DNA from: a virus
Taxonomy: Duplodnaviria; Caudoviricetes
Virus record (IMG/VR): IMGVR_UViG_3300037400_001617
Length of the DNA: 64,000 nt
Reading direction: 5' to 3' (one strand)
The translations under genes were made by a program, and so were the position numbers. The notes under the pieces are model-generated. The model saw nothing but the letters and a program-made list of their open reading frames with translations, had not been told where the DNA came from and ran no database searches. Below, one piece after another: positions 4,310 through 53,286 of the stretch; the stretch's first letter is position 1; each line of letters opens with the position of its first letter.

Positions 4310-6013
4310 TTAGAATACTGGGTCGATAGGCTTGAATGATGGATCAGGCTGTATAGTGAGGCTATATAGATTCATGATACATTCCTTCGTTACATTACGA
4401 GGACTTATACCATCCATACCTATAAGGTTGATCTTGCTATTTGCAGCTTTCTCCAGTTCAGCATTAGCTTCGATAGTATAGATACCCTTAACTATAGCGG
4501 TATCTCCATCGAAGTCCATACCCATTACATCTATATTACCATTAGAGATAGTAAGAGTTGGAGAGAAGAGAGCAGCGGTGTTTCTTCCGAGATCTTCAGA
4601 TCTGATCTTAGGCCACCACTTATACACTTTACCATCCATCATAACAGGCTCAGTTTCATTAGTAGACTTGATGTTTATCTTGGAAGGATACTGGTTAAGG
4701 TAACGGTCTATAGGGAATCGAGTAATCAGACACATCTTATCTGCAGTCATCTCACATGCAGCAAGATAGAAGAGATCACACCATGTCATAGGTCTTTCTA
4801 TAAGAGGATAGCCTGAATAATCCTTCTGGTCATCTATATGCTCAGATGTAACTTTTCTTCCTTTAAATACTATGAACGGAGTATCTGATGTAGTTTTAAG
4901 TTTCTTCTCTTTCACCATCTTAGCCCATTCAGCTTTATCTATGGGAACTGGTATAGGCTGGAAACGGTTAGAGTATCCATGAACAAATCTCTCTATCTGT
5001 TTCACTATCTCCGTATCAGAGAACATGATCTGATAGTCTTCTATAGGAACAGATATCTCACCACTCGGACCAGTCATGGAATACATAGTCTTACCACCGA
5101 ATTCGTTCTCAAAGAAACGTCTACAGTAGTAGATGATGAATGGCTGGAAGAGTACTATAGCAGCCTCAAGAGGGCATGCTGCATGGTCCATATCAACCAT
5201 GAGGTCTTCTATGTTTTCAACCTTCAGATTGGCAGCAGACATAACAAGACGTACACTATAGTCTACAGTCTTGTACATGACACCCTTCTTTATAATGCCA
5301 GTCTTTCCAGGTAAGTTACCACCAGTTTCTTCACCATTGATTACTGTACCTGCACCGAACCAATCATAGATCTGTTTCAGTGTAACTTGTATTCTACCCT
5401 TAGTAGCATCTGCAAGACTTAGTCCATACTCAGCAGTTTCTCTGAGTGCTTTGGTCGCAATGATAAGAGAGCTGTAGAGCTTATTGATTTCTCCGACGCC
5501 TATACTAGCCTGCTTAGTATCAACGTCTCTATAGTATGGCGGTATAACGGGGCATTTCTTAACCCACATCTGGCTCTTGACTTTGTCAAGAAACTTAATC
5601 TTTGTAGCTCTGTCTTTAGAACTGGATTCTTTGGCAGACCAGTCTATCTTATCGTAGTTTGCTTTGAACCAATTCAGACCAGTATTACCTTCAGGGTCTT
5701 TAACCAATTGTCCTTTAGCATCAATAGAGAAGTTCTCGGTTCCGTGTACTATAGCCTCTACCTTCTTATCTAGAGTACAGAGTATCTTATAGACCAGAGG
5801 ATTGAGGAACCATTCGCCAAGATCTATATATGCATAGATACCAGCTCTTTCAGCTTTAGTAATACCGAAGATCTCATTAGACAGAAGTCCATCTGGTGCT
5901 GGAGTCGGACCGTTAAAGAATACAGGGTTAGTGATCTCTTTACAGTCATTGGCTCTGACAAAGCGTTCTACGTCTAATATACTTATATCGAAATGATTAG
6001 TAGATGAACTCAT
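4310..6013 (-). CDS. multisubunit RNA polymerase beta-prime subunit, N-terminal half (probably virion RNAP)
   Basis: DGLLSNEIFG, PVIPPYYRD, KTVDYSVRLV, TRFP and catalytic GMDFDGD motifs. The late promoter fits a virion-packaged RNAP. Confidence 0.9.
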   Translation of the reverse strand: MSSSTNHFDISILDVERFVRANDCKEITNPVFFNGPTPAPDGLLSNEIFGITKAERAGIYAYIDLGEWFLNPLVYKILCTLDKKVEAIVHGTENFSIDAKGQLVKDPEGNTGLNWFKANYDKIDWSAKESSSKDRATKIKFLDKVKSQMWVKKCPVIPPYYRDVDTKQASIGVGEINKLYSSLIIATKALRETAEYGLSLADATKGRIQVTLKQIYDWFGAGTVINGEETGGNLPGKTGIIKKGVMYKTVDYSVRLVMSAANLKVENIEDLMVDMDHAACPLEAAIVLFQPFIIYYCRRFFENEFGGKTMYSMTGPSGEISVPIEDYQIMFSDTEIVKQIERFVHGYSNRFQPIPVPIDKAEWAKMVKEKKLKTTSDTPFIVFKGRKVTSEHIDDQKDYSGYPLIERPMTWCDLFYLAACEMTADKMCLITRFPIDRYLNQYPSKINIKSTNETEPVMMDGKVYKWWPKIRSEDLGRNTAALFSPTLTISNGNIDVMGMDFDGDTAIVKGIYTIEANAELEKAANSKINLIGMDGISPRNVTKECIMNLYSLTIQPDPSFKPIDPVF

Positions 6014-9244: not shown

Positions 9245-9252
9245 TATATTAT
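9245..9252 (+). promoter_or_regulatory. early promoter motif TATATTAT
   Basis: Precedes the RNase H operon and is followed by a long 5' hairpin. Confidence 0.65.
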
Positions 9253-17214: not shown

Positions 17215-18810
17215 ATGTCAACAGCAAGAATTTACTGCGGTGCTTCTGAAGAGATTATACGATCTTCTATCACAAGTGATGTAGATACTCTTACAATATA
17301 TGGTGCTGGTTCAAACTACACACTGACTAAAGAGTTTGTTGACGTAGTATTATCTCTTGATGCTACTATAACAACTTATAATCTTGAAGAGATACATGCT
17401 ATCGGAAAGGAAGCTTTTCGATACGTTAAGAACACAGATGGTTCTTCAATCGCTATCAATGCTGACGATACATTAGAAGTGATAGAGCCATTTGCATTTG
17501 GACAATCGAATGTCCTGAGAAGTATAACTCTTCCCAAATCTCTTAAGAGAATAGAGAACTGTGCGTTCTTCGATTCGGCTATAACTACAGTCAAAATCGA
17601 ACACGAAGACAACGTAGCAGCCTTAGAGTACATAGGCATGTCAGCATTCCAAGACTGTACTAGTTTAACTCAATTCGGTAGAGATGGAGCAGAATCGCAG
17701 GGTTACTTTACAGAAGGTCTTAAGGTTATTGATGCGTACGCATTTGCTAGATGCTCAGCATTGACTATAACCTTCCATGCTCCTGCTAGTCTTGAAACTA
17801 TAGGAGCATACGCATTTGCGTGGTCTGGTATAAGCGGATTCGCTCTACAAGAAGGTTTAAACAAGAGGTCAGGTACTTTACCATCGAATGCTGAATTGGA
17901 AGCTCCAGCCAAAATCACACTGTGCTCAAAGCGCCAATTCAGGTACTTTCATGTCGACGTTTCTAACGAAGTTAACAGAATTGAGCTTCCAGAAGAGTTC
18001 GTTACTTGTGTAAATGATGATCAGTTTATGGTATTCAAAAACGGTCGTCTTATACCACATGGTAACGTTATGTCGAGACCTGTAGATGGAACTCCTCTGT
18101 TCAAATATGAGATCTATATAGATACTCCTAATGCTCAGCCAGGTGACGTACTCGATATATTCTATATACCAGAGATACTTACTTCCATCAATAGCTCCGT
18201 AGAGAACTTCTCTCAGTATAAACCTCCAGAGTCTGAGATAGAGGGACTTATAGAGGACTACTCTTTACTCCAACCATATAACTTCCTCCCTGCAGATCAG
18301 AAGGGGTTCATTAAACTCAGCACTCCTCTATACAACTTCAGCAACAAAGACTCTATGTTCATATTCGTCAATGGTAAGAAAGTAGATATAGATCATATAT
18401 ATGATGTGTCTACTGCTACTATGAGGATAACTCAGTTCCTTCAGCCTCTCGACATACTCAACAACGATGAGTCTAAGCATTACCCAATACAACTCCTCAA
18501 CTTCCAAGACAATCATAGAATCAATTCATTCGTATTCTCCAAAGACGGTTTATCACATTCACCAGACCAAGTAAACATTGTACCATTCGAATGCTTGGAA
18601 TCTTACAACAAACTGTCCATTCTTGATAGAATGCTTTACAATCTCCCAATAGATAAACTTGAAGTTCTCTTCCCAATCGAAACAACCGATATGGATGAAG
18701 ATGACTTCATAGGCGTAAAGTATCCTAGAGACACTGTTATAGTACAGAGACTATACAATATCAACAAGGAATCTGGAGACGACGAATGGTGGAGATACAT
18801 TAACAGTTAA
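17215..18810 (+). CDS. BspA-type leucine-rich repeat virion protein
   Basis: Repeats IGKEAF, IEPFAF, LPKSLKRIENCAF, IGMSAFQDCTSL, IDAYAFARC, SLETIGAYAF, followed by FMVFKNG/FIFVNG structural modules. Confidence 0.8.
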   Translation: MSTARIYCGASEEIIRSSITSDVDTLTIYGAGSNYTLTKEFVDVVLSLDATITTYNLEEIHAIGKEAFRYVKNTDGSSIAINADDTLEVIEPFAFGQSNVLRSITLPKSLKRIENCAFFDSAITTVKIEHEDNVAALEYIGMSAFQDCTSLTQFGRDGAESQGYFTEGLKVIDAYAFARCSALTITFHAPASLETIGAYAFAWSGISGFALQEGLNKRSGTLPSNAELEAPAKITLCSKRQFRYFHVDVSNEVNRIELPEEFVTCVNDDQFMVFKNGRLIPHGNVMSRPVDGTPLFKYEIYIDTPNAQPGDVLDIFYIPEILTSINSSVENFSQYKPPESEIEGLIEDYSLLQPYNFLPADQKGFIKLSTPLYNFSNKDSMFIFVNGKKVDIDHIYDVSTATMRITQFLQPLDILNNDESKHYPIQLLNFQDNHRINSFVFSKDGLSHSPDQVNIVPFECLESYNKLSILDRMLYNLPIDKLEVLFPIETTDMDEDDFIGVKYPRDTVIVQRLYNINKESGDDEWWRYINS

Positions 18811-21029: not shown

Positions 21030-22583
21030 TTACGCAACCTTTGGCTCAAGATCAAGACAAGACTGAATGTCGTCAAGATCCTCTTCTGTATATGAATCCA
21101 TAGAAAGGTTAACGAAGCTGTTGAGACAGATGAGATTGTTGGTCTGAAGAGATACATTAGTCTCAAACAGACCAGTGTTTCTGGAGATCTGACCAACGTA
21201 ACGTGGATTGAATACTTCCATACAAGCCTTGAGGAACTCCTGATTGATGATGTACATGCAGTTCAGAGTATCACCATCAAAGTCTGCATTAAGACCAGAG
21301 AGAATCTCAAGTGGCAGTGACATTGCATAAGAGTCAAAGTGAATACCAACAACCTGCATCTGAAGAACTGACAGAGACCAGATAGATGGATTACGATTGA
21401 TAAGTACACCGACATACTCGGAGTTGACTATATTCATCATAATGTCATAGATCTCTTTAGACGGATTGATAGTTGCCATGAACCACTTCTGATATGCAAT
21501 GTGACGAGGCATTGTCTTTGAGAGAATATTGACTATTCTGAACTCAAGAAGCTCTACCATAGATGCATATGGGAGTATTACCTGATCTATCTCAAGATCA
21601 CTGTTCGGCACGATTACTGATCTCGCACAGAAGTTATATCTGCCTCCTATAGTAGAACGTACCAGTCCCTTCTTATGAGAAAGCTGCTTCTCAAGGTCTG
21701 TATAGATATCCATCCACTTAGACTGCATTCTATACAGAATCTGTTTAGCAGGTTTACCAGTACGTCTAGAGACAAGCTGGTTACGATTGACTCTTGTAGC
21801 CTGAGCCGCAAGAATATTATACAGTGAGTTATTACCATCAAAGTTGAACTGACTGTCGTCAAGGTTGAATGGTCTTAACTGTGTAGTATAGACTGGAATG
21901 GAGTGGGTGAACACGATGTTCTTATACTCCATGATGTGGTCATAGTAATCCATCTTCTCTGGCTTCTTGGCATGCTTGTTCTTATAGAACTCCATGATCT
22001 CGTCAAAACGATCACGGAATGCAAGTATACCAATTCCAACGAATGGACTACTCTTACTAGGTTTCACCTCGATAGGTTTACCGTCTACATCTATCTTATC
22101 ATCATTATCGATGATTGCATCGAACTCTTTGGCTCCGATAAATGCAGAGATAGACTTGAACAGGTTGGGATGAATCAGACAATACTTTTCGTCTATACAT
22201 ATCCATCCAAACTTCTCAAAGTCATCACCCATGTAGTCTACTGGAGTATGACAATACTCACAGATCTGTCCATAGTGTAATCTACCATTAAGATGATTGC
22301 ACTTACATCTGTAGCGATTAGAGTATGCATCCTGATCATTCAGAGTGGGACCGAAGAATGTCGAGAAGATACTTTTGTCGCTCTTAAGGTCTTTCTTGAT
22401 GTCCTGACGCTTCTCGATGATCATACCCTTACCTCTCATAAGGTCAGCTTCTCTTTCCTTATCGAGGTCTATGATTTCGAGAGACGTCTCATATACGTAT
22501 TGCTGTTGTGTTTTGGGGTCTGATGATACGGGTGTTATTGAAAGGGTTGTTCTCCTTTCACGTCTGTCGTAGTCGCTTAACAT
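21030..22583 (-). CDS. multisubunit RNA polymerase beta-prime subunit, N-terminal half (probably non-virion RNAP)
   Basis: Zn ribbon CKC...CEYC, GGRYNFCARSVIVP, LINRNPS and catalytic NADFDGD motifs. Confidence 0.92.
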   Translation of the reverse strand: MLSDYDRRERRTTLSITPVSSDPKTQQQYVYETSLEIIDLDKEREADLMRGKGMIIEKRQDIKKDLKSDKSIFSTFFGPTLNDQDAYSNRYRCKCNHLNGRLHYGQICEYCHTPVDYMGDDFEKFGWICIDEKYCLIHPNLFKSISAFIGAKEFDAIIDNDDKIDVDGKPIEVKPSKSSPFVGIGILAFRDRFDEIMEFYKNKHAKKPEKMDYYDHIMEYKNIVFTHSIPVYTTQLRPFNLDDSQFNFDGNNSLYNILAAQATRVNRNQLVSRRTGKPAKQILYRMQSKWMDIYTDLEKQLSHKKGLVRSTIGGRYNFCARSVIVPNSDLEIDQVILPYASMVELLEFRIVNILSKTMPRHIAYQKWFMATINPSKEIYDIMMNIVNSEYVGVLINRNPSIWSLSVLQMQVVGIHFDSYAMSLPLEILSGLNADFDGDTLNCMYIINQEFLKACMEVFNPRYVGQISRNTGLFETNVSLQTNNLICLNSFVNLSMDSYTEEDLDDIQSCLDLEPKVA

Positions 22584-23156: not shown

Positions 23157-23250
23157 AATTGTACCTCCTTACGGTTCTATAGTATGTAAGTCTAACCATT
23201 ATTGACTGGTTGAACAATTAAGTAATGAATTCAATGCAAGGAGGTCTATT

Positions 23251-24465
23251 ATGGCTACTAAACGTGTTGCTAAAGAGATCACTAACAAAGAAGATCTCGA
23301 CGAGATACTGAATCTGAGTGATCATGACTGTCTGAAGTTATCTGTAGCGATGGAGTACTTCGGAGAGTTCAATGGTAAAGTAAGATTCCACCCGTATGAT
23401 TGGTTCAAAGTTCCGAAGGGAACTTTCCATAATAACAAGAACGTGTTTACTACTACTCTTGGTGCTTGGCTCTTCAATAAGGGCTGTCTCTCATGGAGCG
23501 GAGTGTTCGAAGAAACTGGATATATCAATGTACCAGTTACCAAGAAGGTTGTCAAGGGTATTCTCACAAAGCTCTCTTATGCTATACTGGAGGAGAGACT
23601 TACTGTTCCTCAGTATAAGAGAATGATCGATGCTATGCAGAAGATGATGCCATACAGCACTGTCATCTGTCCTACTACATCAGAGGCTATGCTTACTATC
23701 GGTAAAACTATAGAACCCAAGAAGAAAGAGCTCTTCAAGAAGTACGAGAAAGAACTCGCTGCTGGAGATGCTCTTACTATGAACAAGATCGAGAAGGAAC
23801 TTCTCGACTACTGTAAAGAGAAGCTTGATGGAGATCCTTGTATGGATGGTATCAACTCTGGTGCTGGAGCAGACTGGGGAAACAACTTCAAGAACATGTA
23901 TGTCATCAAGGGAGCTCAGAAAGATCCAGATCCTACAAAGGGATACAATCTTATCACTTCTAACTACATGGAAGGTGTAAGTAAAGAAGACTACTCTGCT
24001 ATGGCTAACTCTCTTGCTGCAGGTCCTTATGCCCGTGCAAAGAATACTGCTTCTGGAGGCTACTCTGAGAAGCTCTTCTTGGGTGCAACCCAGCACGTCG
24101 TACTTGACGAGAAGGGCTCAGATTGCGGAACCACGAGGACTATTCAGATAACCCTCGATAATACGCGTATGAGAATGATGATGTACTCATACATCGTAGA
24201 GGGGAGCAAACTGGTTCGACTCGATAGTACAAACATGGAGAAGTATAGAGGTAAGACTGTAAAGATGAGATTCGCTTCTATGTGTAAGGGTAAGAAGATC
24301 TGTAACAAGTGTGCTGGAGATCTCTTCTACTTACTGGGAGTAAAGAATGTCGGTACAGCATCACCTCAGCTTGCATCATGCGTAAAGCTGATATCAATGA
24401 AGGCTTTCCATGACTCTACAGATAAATACATCAAGATGGACCCAGGTGAAGCATTCGGAACATAA
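23251..24465 (+). CDS. RNA polymerase beta-prime subunit, middle/C-terminal half (probably virion RNAP)
   Basis: NTASGGY bridge-helix region, DCGT, RFASMC...ICNKCAG and MKAFH trigger-loop motif; late motif at 23213-23224. Confidence 0.9.
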   Translation: MATKRVAKEITNKEDLDEILNLSDHDCLKLSVAMEYFGEFNGKVRFHPYDWFKVPKGTFHNNKNVFTTTLGAWLFNKGCLSWSGVFEETGYINVPVTKKVVKGILTKLSYAILEERLTVPQYKRMIDAMQKMMPYSTVICPTTSEAMLTIGKTIEPKKKELFKKYEKELAAGDALTMNKIEKELLDYCKEKLDGDPCMDGINSGAGADWGNNFKNMYVIKGAQKDPDPTKGYNLITSNYMEGVSKEDYSAMANSLAAGPYARAKNTASGGYSEKLFLGATQHVVLDEKGSDCGTTRTIQITLDNTRMRMMMYSYIVEGSKLVRLDSTNMEKYRGKTVKMRFASMCKGKKICNKCAGDLFYLLGVKNVGTASPQLASCVKLISMKAFHDSTDKYIKMDPGEAFGT

Positions 24466-29228: not shown

Positions 29229-29332
29229 AGCAGTGCACTCCTTTCTATAGTTTGATTTTACTGAGATGTTGGGGGTAGCGAGAATGACGCAAATGAGAGG
29301 GATGCACAAAGCATCCCCCTATTTTGCTTCGG

Positions 29333-29785
29333 TTATATACCAGTTTGTCCGTTGTGTTCCATAACGAAGTTTGTTACTCTGAAGTACACTCTTTTGGCTA
29401 TTATATCAGTGATAGCATCCTCATTGTAGAGGATACATAACTGCTCATATAGAGCTTCTGAAAGTCTTTGTGAGACGAGAGTACAGATATCTTTGTTGAT
29501 CTGAATCTCTTCCTCTTCTTTGATATAGTAATCACTCTTATAAGCAAGATTGAGTATAGTGAACTCCTCAAAACATTGCTCTACAACAAGATCGAGCTTC
29601 TCATCTATCTTGTTATCAATGTCGAGTGTGGTGATATGTTTATATCTTTCAAGTTCCACGTTGTTATCTTTAGCCGTAGCCCATACCTTTATTGCAGTCT
29701 TAGCTAAACTCCTGAGTGACAGGAGGTAGATCATACTAAAAACGATAAGGACTTTGACCAGGAATTGTATCGATATGACTGGCAT
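29333..29785 (-). CDS. hypothetical membrane-anchored protein
   Basis: N-terminal hydrophobic segment; SD GGAG before ATG 29785. Confidence 0.7.
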   Translation of the reverse strand: MPVISIQFLVKVLIVFSMIYLLSLRSLAKTAIKVWATAKDNNVELERYKHITTLDIDNKIDEKLDLVVEQCFEEFTILNLAYKSDYYIKEEEEIQINKDICTLVSQRLSEALYEQLCILYNEDAITDIIAKRVYFRVTNFVMEHNGQTGI

Positions 29786-30461
29786 AAGTTTTCTCACTCC
29801 AATTCTTTACTTCTTCAGCTACTTCGAGAAGTCCATCATCTACTGAGTCTACTTCTTCGTAAGCTGTGCGTATATAGTAAAGCACCTTGGTACAAATATC
29901 TGGAGTGATGCCGTTGTAGTATCTCTTGAAGAGTTCTGTCCACTTTCCAAATACCTGATTAGGGTGCGTATAAAAGTTATCGGCGTTATGATAGAGCTGA
30001 TGCACAGTTTTACTCATCATAACTATTGGTACCATGTTGTTCGCATGAGCAAATCTGAGCTCTGCTACTACATGAGGTACTGTTACGTATCCATAAGTAT
30101 TAAGAAAGTGTTCGGTGATCATAACTGTAATGTCGAAGATCGTTAAGATACAATGGTTCATTTCCAATGTAGCCATGTTCGAATCGATATTGTGCAGTAC
30201 TTGACAATGATCAAGACCCATCTCCATCAAGTATGCTTTGTAGTTCTTATAGAATCTGAGTCCTCTAAAGAGATTGATAGCACTATGTATGAATCTATTA
30301 TAGAGGTCTACATCTATCATGGAATCCTTAGTCTGCATCATAGGAAGTTCATACGGTGAACTTGGAGAACACAGTGTAGGATTACCATTATTAAGATACG
30401 CTGTTACATCTGGGAAGGGCTGTCCATTACCCTTATATGTAAGATCTAATGTTTCATTCAT
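29736..30461 (-). CDS. HNH-like conserved jumbo-phage protein (paralogue of 63304..63996)
   Basis: LEMNH...IVMMSKTVHQLYHN; late motif at 30486-30497. Confidence 0.6.
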   Translation of the reverse strand: MNETLDLTYKGNGQPFPDVTAYLNNGNPTLCSPSSPYELPMMQTKDSMIDVDLYNRFIHSAINLFRGLRFYKNYKAYLMEMGLDHCQVLHNIDSNMATLEMNHCILTIFDITVMITEHFLNTYGYVTVPHVVAELRFAHANNMVPIVMMSKTVHQLYHNADNFYTHPNQVFGKWTELFKRYYNGITPDICTKVLYYIRTAYEEVDSVDDGLLEVAEEVKNWSEKTYASHIDTIPGQSPYRF

Positions 30462-30504
30462 ATTCTATGCCTCCTTAGCACGTATTATAAGATAGTTTAA
30501 AGAC

Positions 30505-30703
30505 AAAAAGAGGGGAGGAGGCCGTTAAGCCTCCTCTGCGAAGGGGGTGAATGGTTCTAGATAAAGCCAAATTAAGCACCACTTGAAGAATGGATGTCGT
30601 TACGCCTACGACAACCGAGGGCTCAATAGGCAATACATGAGTTGAACCGAATGCTAGAATGATTATAGTCACGTTAGCGAGACGATCCGTCAACATCCCG
30701 CTC
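30505..30703 (-). ncRNA. candidate ~200-nt structured late small RNA
   Basis: Late motif AACA ctatag TG at 30703-30714; successive hairpins, two with G-U pairs on this strand; terminator GAGGAGGC/GCCUCCUC plus U-tract; no SD for the overlapping 76-aa ORF. Confidence 0.65.
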
Positions 30704-30731
30704 ACTATAGTGTTATAGGAGTTGTAAAGTA

Positions 30732-31175
30732 TTATTCTGTTTCTTTAACACTTGTTTTCTTTATGTCAATGATAGCAAGCAACTCTTCCGCCGATACAGC
30801 GATATTGCTATTGAGAGGTCTGACATAAATAGAATGGACCCGTCTGAAGTCTTGTAATGCCCTGAATACATCTTTATCAAACTGGTCATGAAGCCCAATA
30901 CTGTACCCTTTGATAAACATAAACAGTCTCACTATACCCCATAGAGTATCTCTAAAGAATGATAGACTTATCTGCTTATCAAGGATTGTTTTCTCAAGCT
31001 GGGGTTCAGATTTGACGTTTAGGTATCGCTTCAGTATTTCCATACAGATGTCGTGTTGCTCTTCGTATGTGTTAAAGTTATGTGATGGTGTGTACTCCAT
31101 ACGTTTCACACAAAAACGAACAAATGATTCTTTGCCGTCTTTATCGATGAAACTATGGTCTTTGTTGATAGACAT
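30732..31175 (-). CDS. hypothetical protein with peptidoglycan-binding-like domain
   Basis: GYSIGLHDQFDKDVFRALQDFRRVHSI resembles PG_binding_1; late motif at 31200-31211; next to the endolysin. Confidence 0.55.
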   Translation of the reverse strand: MSINKDHSFIDKDGKESFVRFCVKRMEYTPSHNFNTYEEQHDICMEILKRYLNVKSEPQLEKTILDKQISLSFFRDTLWGIVRLFMFIKGYSIGLHDQFDKDVFRALQDFRRVHSIYVRPLNSNIAVSAEELLAIIDIKKTSVKETE

Positions 31176-31272
31176 AAACAGTCCCTCCTTTAAAGTGATT
31201 ATAGAATGGTTGCGGGAACTGTAAATGAGCAGTAACAGCAGAGGGAGGCTATTGCCCCCCTCCGCGTATATG

Positions 31273-32415
31273 TCACTTTATGTCGGATTCATTGACCCAA
31301 CCAGTCACATAATTACCGATAGGAGTTTTACCTACATTGCTAGAAGAATTTGTTATTCTGATACGTCCATTGAGTACTTTACCATCATAGATGAAGTAAG
31401 TACCAGTCTTCTTACCAGAAGGGTTCTTAGCTGTAGATGATGTGTAGAGATCTACACTAGAAAGCTCAACTTTCTGTCCTTCACGAATAGTTGTAGTAGG
31501 TGCAGGAGCAGGTGTAGGCTCTTCCTTCTTAGTCTCCTGAACAACAGGAGCTGGAGCAGCCACTGTAGTAGGATTATCGATCCATCCAGTTACATAGTTA
31601 CCGATAGGATTCTTACCTACATTAGCCGCAGAGTTAGTGATACGAATACGTCCATTGACTACTTTATCATCGTATCTGTAGAAAGTACCAGTCTTCTTAC
31701 CAGAAGGGTTCTTAGCAGATGCAGATGAATAGAGAGGAGTATTGTTCAGCTGAAGAACGTTATCGTCTGTTACAACAGGCTGTACAGGCTTCGGCTCTTC
31801 TTCAGGCTGTTCTGTTGCGGGCTGAACACCATTGATCTTAGCTGGGTAGTCTACATAGCAGTAGTCAGCATCTACATCGCCGTAGATACCAGGAATCTTA
31901 GCAGTCCAGCTATACTGCCACATAGTGTGACCAGTGTAAGACGTTCTGTTTACTCCAACTTGAGCTATCCACACATCATACTTGTTCTTGATCTGTGAAG
32001 AGATAGCTTTAGACATGTCGAGGAATGTGTAGAGACCTACATAGTATCCTGCAGCCTTAACCTTATCGAGGAATGCAGGAATAATAGTATTCACGATTCC
32101 TCTCTGCTTTCCTTCCTCTACATCGTAGAAGAGAGGGTAGTCGAATGTCTTACCCTTGACAGCCTGAAGGAAGCAGTCAGCCTCTATGCGAGCCTCTGCA
32201 GCAGACATAGCATATGAATACCAATAAGCACCCACCATAAGTCCAGCAGCTTTAGCACCAGCATAGTACTCTTCGAACTTCTTATCCTTCTGGGAGATGA
32301 GTCTTCCATATCCAGCACGGATAATAACAAAGTCTATACCAGAATTCTTAACTGCGTTCCAGTTTATGTTACCCTGGAAATATGAGACGTCAATGCCTCT
32401 ATATGTTTTGCTCAT
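31273..32415 (-). CDS. GH25 muramidase endolysin with two SH3-like cell-wall-binding repeats
   Basis: GIDVSYFQG, GAYWYSYA, FYDVEE, WQYS and DVDAD motifs; duplicated KNPSGKKTGT...GRIRITN domain; late motif at 32439-32450. Confidence 0.93.
   Translation of the reverse strand: MSKTYRGIDVSYFQGNINWNAVKNSGIDFVIIRAGYGRLISQKDKKFEEYYAGAKAAGLMVGAYWYSYAMSAAEARIEADCFLQAVKGKTFDYPLFYDVEEGKQRGIVNTIIPAFLDKVKAAGYYVGLYTFLDMSKAISSQIKNKYDVWIAQVGVNRTSYTGHTMWQYSWTAKIPGIYGDVDADYCYVDYPAKINGVQPATEQPEEEPKPVQPVVTDDNVLQLNNTPLYSSASAKNPSGKKTGTFYRYDDKVVNGRIRITNSAANVGKNPIGNYVTGWIDNPTTVAAPAPVVQETKKEEPTPAPAPTTTIREGQKVELSSVDLYTSSTAKNPSGKKTGTYFIYDGKVLNGRIRITNSSSNVGKTPIGNYVTGWVNESDIK
31295..31730. repeat. internal duplication encoding two cell-wall-binding repeats
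   Basis: For example AAGTACCAGTCTTCTTACCAGAAGGGTTCTTAGC is identical at about 31398-31431 and 31683-31716. Confidence 0.85.
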
Positions 32416-38831: not shown

Positions 38832-38894
38832 ACCAATACCTCCTTTTCTATAGTGTTAGGGGATGAGTAAAATCACCCCCTAACGTCGATACTA

Positions 38895-48228: not shown

Positions 48229-48675
48229 TTGATTGTATGAGTCAATGAATGACTTCTCGGAGCCATTGATACTACTAAGGGCTTGAGACATTTGAGACTT
48301 TGAGATAAGACGAACTTCACGGAAGTTGAAGTCTTTGACAGACCAAATGTCATTGAGCCATAGTATAATGTAATAGAGCTCTCCGTTTCCATAGAGGAAA
48401 TCGGCTAAGAGCTTAGGTCTAAAACGATATCTGAGGTACTCTTGCTCAGATAACGTGACCTTGGTAGACATATCTTTCAGATCCTGTATATAGTCTGACA
48501 TGACATTGTATACATCGAACTCGATGTGATGTGCTGTATCGGGCTCTAACAGAGAAAGATAGTAGTATGACAACTGACCAGACGGCTTAGCATTAACGAA
48601 GTCGTCTAAAGTACAAGTTCTTGAAGGAACTTGCTGTGCGGAATTGACGTAGGTAGATGAGTTATTGTACTTCAT
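48211..48675 (-). CDS. baseplate wedge LysM-like protein (T4 gp53-like)
   Basis: YRFRPKLLADFLYGNGELYYIILWLN. Confidence 0.75.
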   Translation of the reverse strand: MKYNNSSTYVNSAQQVPSRTCTLDDFVNAKPSGQLSYYYLSLLEPDTAHHIEFDVYNVMSDYIQDLKDMSTKVTLSEQEYLRYRFRPKLLADFLYGNGELYYIILWLNDIWSVKDFNFREVRLISKSQMSQALSSINGSEKSFIDSYNQSASAT

Positions 48676-49019
48676 TCGTAACACCTCCCGATGATCTGTA
48701 CGTTGTTTATATTACCGCCTACAAAAGCAACTAAGAACTTAGTGCCTTTAGGGATGAACTTGTCTTCATAGGCGAGCATAATCTCTCTAGGTATCTTAAG
48801 GTCTAGTGTTATCTCACTAGACATCTTGCTAGTGGATAACCAGGTAAGGTCTTTATTCATAATATAAGATCTATTAACTACTACAGTTCTTCCAACCTCT
48901 GTTTCAAAAGGCACCAATGCCTTGATATAGAATGGATGTTTAACTGTAGGGTTTTCATACTTGTTTACTTCTTCGTACAGGATAGCTTCTTGTACGTAGT
49001 TGTACTTCGAGTATTCCAT
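48672..49019 (-). CDS. putative baseplate spike/OB-fold protein
   Basis: IPKGTKFLVAFVGGNINNVQIIG resembles the gp5/gpV OB-fold end; late motif at 49041-49052. Confidence 0.55.
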   Translation of the reverse strand: MEYSKYNYVQEAILYEEVNKYENPTVKHPFYIKALVPFETEVGRTVVVNRSYIMNKDLTWLSTSKMSSEITLDLKIPREIMLAYEDKFIPKGTKFLVAFVGGNINNVQIIGRCYE

Positions 49020-50928: not shown

Positions 50929-50961
50929 TGTATTCTTCTAACAAACTCACAACAATATAGT

Positions 50962-51110
50962 ATGGCGGTGCAGCTATGCACTATTAGACTCTCACAGCAG
51001 TTCTCTATGTTAAAATGGACAGTTATGAGTCTAGACGAGCGATTCTTTAAGAGTTGAATCTTAAGCAGTTACCGCCACCACCTTTCCGTAGTGGAAATGT
51101 CCACTACGGA
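50962..51110 (+). ncRNA. candidate structured late RNA with tRNA-like acceptor stem and 3' ACCA
   Basis: Late motif AACA atatag TA at 50951-50962; GGCGGUG/UACCGCC closing stem then ACCA; internal UAGACUC/GAGUCUA helix; downstream hairpin at 51085-51110; no ORF. Confidence 0.65.
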
Positions 51111-52701: not shown

Positions 52702-52749
52702 CCAGGCACTCAACTTATCTATAATACTAACCAAAGGAGGTTAATAGTT

Positions 52750-53286
52750 ATGGATAAAGCAAAACTTATAGCTCTTAGAAAAGAGCTTCATCAGCTTACC
52801 AATATAGCTAGAAAGAATCCCGATCAGAAGATAGATGTACCGCTCATCATAGCAATCGATCACGGTACTACTGTAATCGACGAGATCGATAGTTGTATAA
52901 TGTGGGATGATGATAACGAAGTATTGTACTCAATCGAGTACAATAACAACGTGAACGACAAGCTGTACAATATCTGCCCGATGAGAATCAGAGCATTTCA
53001 GTACAGCACGATCGTTTCAGTAACTGCGAGAGCAGATCTGAATATGCTTATGGACTTCTTCGACTCAAAGATTTCTGACGGAATCACGAATGAGACTACT
53101 AAGGAGAAGTACAGAAAGGCATACATGGATATGAGAGATCCGAGAACCTTCGCTGCAGGACATCCTAGTCCGTCTACTTCAAAGGATCTTCCTTTGAATC
53201 AGGTAGATAGATTCAACGAAGACTTCCCGCTCATGAATCCATCAGCTATCATGGCAAACCTCGAGAACTCAAATCCTGAGGTATAA
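52750..53286 (+). CDS. late hypothetical protein (candidate sRNA target)
   Basis: 178 aa, late motif at 52712-52723, SD AAAGGAGGT. Confidence 0.8.
   Translation: MDKAKLIALRKELHQLTNIARKNPDQKIDVPLIIAIDHGTTVIDEIDSCIMWDDDNEVLYSIEYNNNVNDKLYNICPMRIRAFQYSTIVSVTARADLNMLMDFFDSKISDGITNETTKEKYRKAYMDMRDPRTFAAGHPSPSTSKDLPLNQVDRFNEDFPLMNPSAIMANLENSNPEV

Follow-up and report, generated by a model that had tools for sequence, protein, structure and literature searches.

The DNA studied here contains, between a 147-aa gene and a 241-aa gene on the minus strand, a short stretch bounded by what look like a promoter and a terminator. Does this stretch encode an RNA of its own, and if so, on what does that RNA act? 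The initial annotation had answered both questions, proposing a late minus-strand small RNA of ~200 nt that would silence a gene 22 kb away by covering its translation start.

The window (the whole stretch of DNA that was analyzed, 64,000 nt, corresponding to bases 20064-84063 of a 122.5-kb IMG/VR record estimated to be ~50% complete) belongs to an uncultivated giant phage from cattle-gut samples, whose close relatives have genomes of 229-232 kb. Its genes for gyrase subunits and for several split, beta-like subunits of RNA polymerase lead us to regard it as a jumbo phage of the phiKZ/AR9 type. A blastn search of the region against 50,697 phage records returned no match. The RNA unit sits beside lysis genes, with a GH25 endolysin gene two genes upstream, and the unit, its two flanking genes and the endolysin gene are all on the minus strand. 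The polymerase genes and the two genes flanking the unit are as follows.

4310-6013: phrog_2986, "RNA polymerase beta subunit" (PHROG match).
21030-22583: phrog_2987, "RNA polymerase beta subunit" (PHROG match).
23251-24465: phrog_2962, "RNA polymerase beta subunit" (PHROG match).
30732-31175, minus strand: 147-aa gene (ORF), upstream of the unit.
29736-30461, minus strand: 241-aa gene (ORF), downstream of the unit; phrog_12252, a family of unknown function.

A transcript of the 147-aa gene would end at the same terminator as the unit, which can therefore also be the 3′ UTR of that gene. The RNA itself would span 30703 to ~30508 on the minus strand, starting at a late-type promoter of the form AACA-(6N)-TG. 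From its 5′ end it would comprise a hairpin, a variable AU-rich linker, a second hairpin of 31 pairs, a linker with the box UCACCCCC, and an intrinsic terminator.

30703-30714, minus strand: late-type promoter motif AACA-CTATAG-TG, read from the sequence, with a predicted +1 at G 30703.
30676-30702, minus strand: 5′ hairpin of 9 pairs, AGCGGGAUG/CGUCUCGCU, directly at the 5′ end (single-sequence and consensus folds).
30649-30675, minus strand: AU-rich single-stranded linker of variable length (alignments).
30553-30648, minus strand: long irregular hairpin of 31 pairs, closed by GGUUC/GAACC (consensus fold and pair counts).
30537-30552, minus strand: 3′ single-stranded linker AUUCACCCCCUUCGCA, with UCACCCCC at 30550-30543 (fold and opening cost).
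30505-30536, minus strand: intrinsic terminator GAGGAGGC-UUAA-CGGCCUCCUC, then CCCUCUUUUU (sequence).
30486-30497, minus strand: separate late-type promoter motif AACT-ATCTTA-TA for the 241-aa gene (sequence).

The promoter was found just as the initial annotation had described it: on the minus strand, AACA (30714-30711), CTATAG (30710-30705), T (30704) and G (30703) follow one another as AACACTATAGTG at 30714-30703. In the Bacillus phage AR9, 94 mapped late start sites fit AACA-(6N)-TA/G with the start at the last base, and early promoters read AAATATATATTAT-(6N)-G; AR9 late units are transcribed by the non-virion RNA polymerase, and antisense and internal transcripts also arise from its late promoters (PMC5312081). 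The motif of the unit is an exact fit to the AR9 late class and a poor fit to the early class (7/11). Motifs of the type AAC-N7-T[AG] peak at −40 to −31 before start codons; 25 of 108 genes have one there, where ~2.3 would be expected for a 10-nt bin, and such a site also precedes both the 52750 gene and the 241-aa gene. A late motif with its start at the last base thus occurs together with split multisubunit RNA polymerase genes, as in AR9. By analogy, the RNA would be made late, by the phage's non-virion polymerase.

The RNA promoter contains a 10-bp perfect palindrome, CACTATAGTG, at 30703-30712. The motif and its palindrome are invariant in six variants of the RNA (see below) and in the more distant relatives L010/L054, and the palindrome could double as a site for a dimeric protein. 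Other promoter-like sequences were noted along the way. Some start codons are preceded, at a distance of 60-70 nt, by a second class, TTATATAyTAT-(6N)-G, usually with a 5′-UTR hairpin directly after it, and this class resembles the AR9 early (virion polymerase) consensus; sites of this class were seen at 9245, 42569(−) and 57563 in the window and, in window numbering, at −6537, 64588(−), 79101 and 81407 in G000. In addition, AAC(A)CTATAGAA occurs 23-27 nt before the ATG of three genes (38844-38857, 29241-29254 and 23173-23186, all on the minus strand), where it abuts the ribosome-binding site; it has the CTATAG core of the small-RNA promoter, without the T before the start base.

At the other end of the unit, the U-tailed terminator claimed earlier was likewise present on the minus strand, as a G+C-rich stem of 9 pairs (30536-30515) followed by CCCTCTTTTT. 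All variants have this terminator, and other clades have a different stem in the same place. The AACT-ATCTTA-TA motif of the 241-aa gene is kept in all relatives, down to 65% protein identity. As a side observation, the 5′ arm of the terminator, GAGGAGGC (30515-30536), is almost the same as the next gene's ribosome-binding site, AAGGAGGC (30470-30477), so that in read-through transcripts the 3′ arm, GCCUCCUC, could pair with that ribosome-binding site; this possible pairing is not kept in the clades with other terminators.

Pattern and protein searches recovered five further distinct variants of the RNA (L002/L003, L004/L062, L005, L060 and L063), and a consensus fold was computed with RNAalifold on the resulting six. 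The hairpin AGCGGGAUG/CGUCUCGCU appeared at 30702-30676 in the single-sequence and consensus folds alike, in agreement with the initial annotation; two of its pairs vary, only between G-C and G-U, and 100% of its cells are paired. The GUCGU/ACGAC hairpin was also recovered, as part of the apical helix. A third proposed hairpin, GGUUCAA/UUGAGCC, can form, but it competes for the same bases with a better-backed long-range alternative, in which GGUUC (30648-30644) pairs with GAACC (30557-30553) and UUGAGCC pairs with GGUGCUU/C. In support of the long-range pairing, two columns vary, with three haplotypes that are compatible with it, and GAACC survives inside an otherwise variable stretch.

Across the six variants, 97.9% of stem cells form standard pairs, the few unpaired ones lying in the basal helix and the terminator. 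Nine pairs vary, each on one side only, as G-C/G-U or U-A/U-G on the minus strand. The structure conservation index was 0.89 for the minus strand versus 0.70 for the plus strand, and 0.92 versus 0.65 when the terminator was left out. The argument made earlier from G-U pairs therefore extends to the whole set of variants: changes in the stems preserve pairing on the minus strand only. The MFE z-scores of the single sequence did not separate the strands (−2.39 versus −2.48). No compensatory double changes were seen in the stems of the six variants, which are too close to one another for covariation tests to be informative.

The window is the outlier among the variants: at four-fold sites of the 241-aa gene its identity to the others is 66-69%, versus 88-95% among the others. 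Between the window and the sister phages, identity is highest in the core of the long hairpin, the best-conserved part of the RNA, at 89-92%, and reaches 87-90% in the 5′ hairpin. In the two single-stranded linkers it drops to 25-59% with gaps counted; the AU-rich linker of the sister phages is ~13-17 nt longer and 30-43% identical to that of the window, again with gaps counted. Identities of 87-92% in the stems against 66-69% at four-fold sites indicate that the stems are under purifying selection and that the linkers, apart from a C-run discussed below, are not.

More distant relatives show what happens to the slot over longer times. In L010/L054, the neighbors of which are 82-83% identical, TATAACACTATAGTGAG, a 5′ hairpin, a long hairpin and a terminator are kept around a body that cannot be aligned, and the 5′ hairpin of L010 has a different sequence, GAGGG/CCCUC. 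In L012 (75%), L055 (77%) and L056 (75%), the late motif lies just past the upstream stop codon and is followed in each by an unrelated ORF-less body of 170-330 nt with its own terminator. In relatives with 75-83% neighbor identity, the same slot thus contains an ORF-less body of 170-330 nt that follows a late motif and ends in a terminator. The chance of a late motif in such short stretches is ~5%, as estimated from base composition, so finding one in each of the four ORF-less body types examined suggests that transcription of an RNA here is selected. Because the bodies cannot be aligned between clades, the constraint on their sequence is shallow in evolutionary terms. Farther out, the slot is occupied in L057-59 (67% neighbors) by the gene for a protein of 120 aa that has a single membrane helix, at its N terminus (P0125; L057:1048-1410), possibly a holin-like lysis protein given the nearby endolysin, and in L013-16 (65%) by a gene on the opposite strand. 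Inspection of translations showed that this opposite-strand gene is not a homologue of the 52750 protein. Nor is the unit a remnant of the gene for the 120-aa membrane protein, of which tblastn and blastn found no trace.

The body of the RNA was recovered from RNA libraries, as a short piece on its own. Metatranscriptome runs containing a small share of a 1.6-kb query were found by index search, and four were mapped on 29700-31300. DNA runs with ~60% of the 31-mers of the window lineage exist as well. One bovine metatranscriptome study yielded exactly one contig, at 30544-30700 (157 nt, no mismatch, depth 9.5), and a second study likewise yielded exactly one, at 30542-30691 (150 nt, no mismatch, depth 2.3). 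Neither contig extends beyond the predicted RNA; one end of each is near the RNA's predicted start, and the other falls a few bases short of the terminator stem. The matching ends in two studies are a weak hint at the ends of the RNA. The contigs carry no strand information, and missing coverage elsewhere does not count as evidence; this applies to runs X4 and X5, which had no coverage on the flanking genes. In runs X2 and X6, only parts of the flanking genes were covered, by sequence from a 95-99% relative. A host-derived or CRISPR-repeat-like origin was rejected, since a 20-mer core of the unit is absent from 185,579 species genomes, which makes a bacterial source of the RNA unlikely. A degenerate pattern of the apical hairpin gave three matches, in genomes of Actinobacteria and Chloroflexi, which are presumably due to chance.

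The unit has no conserved reading frame. Its longest frame (76 aa, GTG start, 30475-30705) runs through the terminator, has no Shine-Dalgarno sequence and no PHROG match, and is split over two frames by 1-nt indels in the sister phages, which argues against a small protein or a type I toxin. The plus-strand mini-ORF MVLDKAKLSTT, which had been offered as a trace of a duplicated gene start, exists in the window, but its ATG is lost in the sister phages. No Rfam 15 family matched the 64-kb window at gathering score, and at E values up to 10 the interval 30300-30900 gave two chance-level matches only, both outside the unit (E 1.5 and 4.5). RsaE, 6S, c4, tmRNA, riboswitches and ribozymes were set aside accordingly, none of these curated families having a covariance-model match near gathering score, and ARAGORN found no tRNA or tmRNA in the window. 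Another ORF-free stretch, at 50951-51110, begins with TATAGTATGG; there too ARAGORN and Rfam returned nothing.

Taken together, these data indicate that the RNA gene is very probably real. The proposal of a minus-strand small RNA stands as far as a discrete, structured, ORF-less unit with its own signals and a body found in RNA libraries is concerned; its strand, its exact ends and its length of ~195 nt are predicted.

What such an RNA would do is suggested by its 3′ linker. UCACCCCC is the only single-stranded element kept across the variants (5/6, L060 having CACCUCU), and it is flanked by highly variable single-stranded sequence. We take it to resemble the 3′ end of 16S rRNA, i.e., the anti-Shine-Dalgarno sequence. 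The predicted opening cost is below 1 kcal/mol at RNA positions ~153-167, which include the box. A motif TCACC[CT]C, defined after being seen, occurs once near the 3′ end in 3/5 unalignable body types, against a genome frequency of 9.4e-5 per nt; in L010 the UCACCUC falls inside the terminator stem, and L055 and L056 lack the motif. Among possible targets, the GGAGGTGA ribosome sites of three genes are kept in both lineages, and the orthologues 17215-18810 and G001 73601-75214 are predicted targets via the C-run, each in its own genome, at ranks 5 and 12. Ribosome sites of the GGAGGUGA type belong to 17215-18810, to 48672-49019 and, past the end of the window but in its numbering, to G000 87377-87619.

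We therefore favor, with some confidence, a stand-alone late noncoding RNA gene of ~195 nt, the product of which acts in trans by base pairing through its C-rich box. The accessible box would mask Shine-Dalgarno sequences of the type GGAGGUGA or GGGGG, and the hairpins would provide stability or a platform for protein binding. Several observations weigh against this reading. The stems lack compensatory double changes, the strand and exact ends of the RNA are predicted, the available sequences being contigs, and the body is not alignable between clades. Except for the C-run of 7-8 nt, the single-stranded parts are the least conserved, which is unusual for a seed-driven small RNA and fits a structure- or protein-dependent function equally well. 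The place of UCACCUC in the L010 terminator stem and its absence from L055 and L056 also count against it, and complementarity to Shine-Dalgarno sequences is short and of low specificity.

The more specific target named in the initial annotation is the translation start of a 178-aa gene without a PHROG family, 52750-53286. The two segments concerned are as follows.

52734-52764, plus strand: proposed target, comprising the Shine-Dalgarno sequence, AUG and first codons of gene 52750-53286.
30541-30571, minus strand: segment of the RNA complementary to it at 25/31 positions (ungapped alignment); 30553-30571 falls within the 3′ arm of the long hairpin, and the remainder, 30541-30552, within the single-stranded linker.

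The ungapped match of 25/31 is exact as claimed, and the mismatches at positions 5, 9, 13 and 17 and the one G-U pair follow from the two strings. It is the best 31-mer match of the unit on either strand of the 122.5-kb record, the next unrelated one scoring 22. When the unit was shuffled 150 times with its dinucleotides preserved, the best scores were 21 (18 times), 22 (101 times), 23 (22 times) and 24 (9 times) and never reached 25, so the match is unusual, at a p of ~0.01 for a search of the whole record, but not overwhelming. Likewise, the RNA of a sister phage has no 31-mer match of at least 23 in its own 232-kb genome, which again makes 25 unusual. The match falls exactly on a translation start, in antisense orientation, and includes a run of 10 pairs over the AUG, UGGAUAAAGC with GCUUUAUCUA. 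Scores fall from 25 for the window RNA with the window target to 20 and 20 for mixed pairs and 19 for the sister pair, so that lineage differences on both sides raise the match, although the direction of these differences cannot be polarized with two lineages. These features would be expected if the RNA were a trans-encoded antisense repressor of 52750-53286, at least in the window lineage.

Conservation and target ranking speak against such repression. The sister phages keep both loci, the RNA and the 52750 start region, but show only background complementarity between them: sister RNAs match their own start regions at 19/31 (L002 with L018) and 16/31 (L005 with L019), in the same range as unrelated RNA bodies from other clades (15-18), and the duplex energy drops from −27.2 kcal/mol in the window to −23.1 and −18.4 kcal/mol in the sisters. 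The sister changes of GCUUUAUC to GCUCUACC or GCUCUACA destroy the 10-pair run; they are U-to-C changes opposite a G in the RNA's own 5′ arm, so that they improve the hairpin and break the pairing with the target GAUAAAGC, which has not changed. Sequence change here tracks the intramolecular hairpin, in which 19 of the 31 nt are paired, and not the target. A mismatch at each fourth base makes a poor helix, and nine of the matches amount to no more than the anti-Shine-Dalgarno box lying opposite a Shine-Dalgarno sequence.

Targets were ranked by a simplified scheme of our own, not with IntaRNA, and whole-RNA duplexfold and cofold rankings were discarded as long-loop artifacts. By hybrid energy alone, the 52750 start region came second of 110, at −28.2 against −28.3, −27.9 and −27.1 for others, so it was no outlier among start regions, and many segments away from starts scored better. 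With accessibility taken into account it fell to 68th of 110 and 89th of 108, and in the sister genome G001 the 52750 homologue ranked 196th of 198; the expectation that it would be the top-ranked target was thus not borne out. The sister RNA, moreover, has an equally striking gapped match to an unrelated gene: UUCAUUUACUCAUUUCUAGCUAUCGGUUCA, in its longer linker, forms ~26 pairs over 29 nt with the start region of a 143-aa gene (G001:C1:64823-65251). This is the top predicted target in the sister genome, and the window RNA lacks that segment of the linker. Such matches evidently do arise.

Antisense control of 52750-53286 as a conserved function is therefore not supported by the relatives or the rankings. 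Silencing of the gene 22 kb away is not kept in the sisters and is probably not the main job of the RNA, and repression of that gene in the window lineage is unlikely overall. The best reading of the 25/31 pairing is that it is specific to the window lineage, and it may be largely explained by the RNA's own hairpin. The alternative origin that had been suggested, a decayed duplicate gene start, fares no better, as the similarity stops after 31 nt, there is no ORF, and the sisters show no residual similarity. Naming a target from a match of this kind should await a check of sister genomes.

A different possibility is that pairing with mRNA is irrelevant and that the long hairpin is the functional module, binding or decoying a protein in a structure-dependent manner, for example as a sponge for an RNA-binding protein or nuclease of either host or phage, or as an RNase III substrate. 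In favor of such a function, purifying selection acts on the stems and spares the single-stranded linkers, conservation of the fold is strand specific, and L010 shows the same layout, a 5′ hairpin, then a long hairpin and a terminator, built from a different sequence. The sequence of the hairpin nevertheless differs between clades, whereas a protein site would be expected to persist, and Rfam, which includes 6S and other protein-binding RNAs, gave no match. We consider this explanation rather improbable, and the base-pairing RNA described above remains our preferred reading.

It is very unlikely that the unit has no trans function at all and is only a long 3′ UTR or spacer ending the late operon, with a weak or incidental promoter and the RNA a decay product protected by its hairpins: the terminator does serve the upstream genes too, and the slot is variable (in relatives it contains unrelated bodies, a gene on the opposite strand or the gene for the 120-aa membrane protein) with fast turnover of the body, but the stems evolve three to four times slower than synonymous sites, the late motif lies directly past the stop codon in 4/4 ORF-less body types examined, and, as a weak hint, the contigs end at ~30700 and 30691 and do not enter the upstream gene.

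The preferred reading, action in trans through the C-rich box, can be taken one step further, although we regard the extension as improbable. In AR9-like jumbo phages of the cattle gut, a fast-evolving late RNA in a fixed slot next to the lysis genes might keep a constant UCACCYC as an anti-Shine-Dalgarno decoy that damps GGAGGUGA-type mRNAs, its seed being lengthened lineage by lineage. If this were true, a phage-made copy of the 16S 3′ end (UCACCYC) would damp translation from extended GGAGGUGA-type sites, and in individual lineages the seed would be lengthened to form long duplexes with certain start regions, that of 52750 among them.

Cataloguing of small RNAs in jumbo phages has only begun, and none has a known function. 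The unit described here combines clear signals, measurable selection on its stems and presence in RNA libraries of two independent studies, in a phage known from metagenomes only. A literature search for anti-Shine-Dalgarno RNAs of jumbo phages found nothing specific, and four known systems offer partial parallels. The late units of AR9 (PMC5312081) share the promoter AACA-(6N)-T[A/G] with the start at its last base, and belong to a jumbo phage with split multisubunit RNA polymerase genes; no homologous RNA is described in AR9, and the window phage is uncultivated. Small RNAs of the Pseudomonas jumbo phages 201phi2-1 and phiKZ were found by ONT-cappable-seq; 201phi2-1 encodes eleven, of unknown functions, one of which is conserved by position across genera (PMC11512511). 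They resemble the window unit in being promoter-to-terminator units of <250 nt, intergenic or in 5′ UTRs, and the positionally conserved one adjoins a structural gene (PMC11512511). They come from another phage lineage and host phylum, and no relation in sequence to the window unit is expected. In the window, a separate promoter lies between the unit and the next gene, so the unit is not a prematurely terminated 5′ UTR.

RNAs of the RsaE/RoxS type in Firmicutes, which mask Shine-Dalgarno sequences with a C-rich seed, are similar in having an accessible C-run near the terminator that is complementary to G-rich ribosome-binding sites. The window RNA differs from them in being phage encoded, in having one C-rich box only and no Rfam match, and in that its candidate targets are predicted only. 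The c4 antisense RNA of P1 and P7 (RF01695) is likewise a phage RNA for which blocking of a phage gene's ribosome-binding site has been proposed, but c4 is processed from the operon that it controls, whereas the window RNA has no Rfam match and a target pairing that is not conserved. Against these systems, the window RNA is best read as a new phage small RNA, unrelated to the known ones and belonging to no Rfam family, from an AR9-like lineage, and it provides a concrete candidate for studying late RNA regulators in giant phages with their own polymerases.
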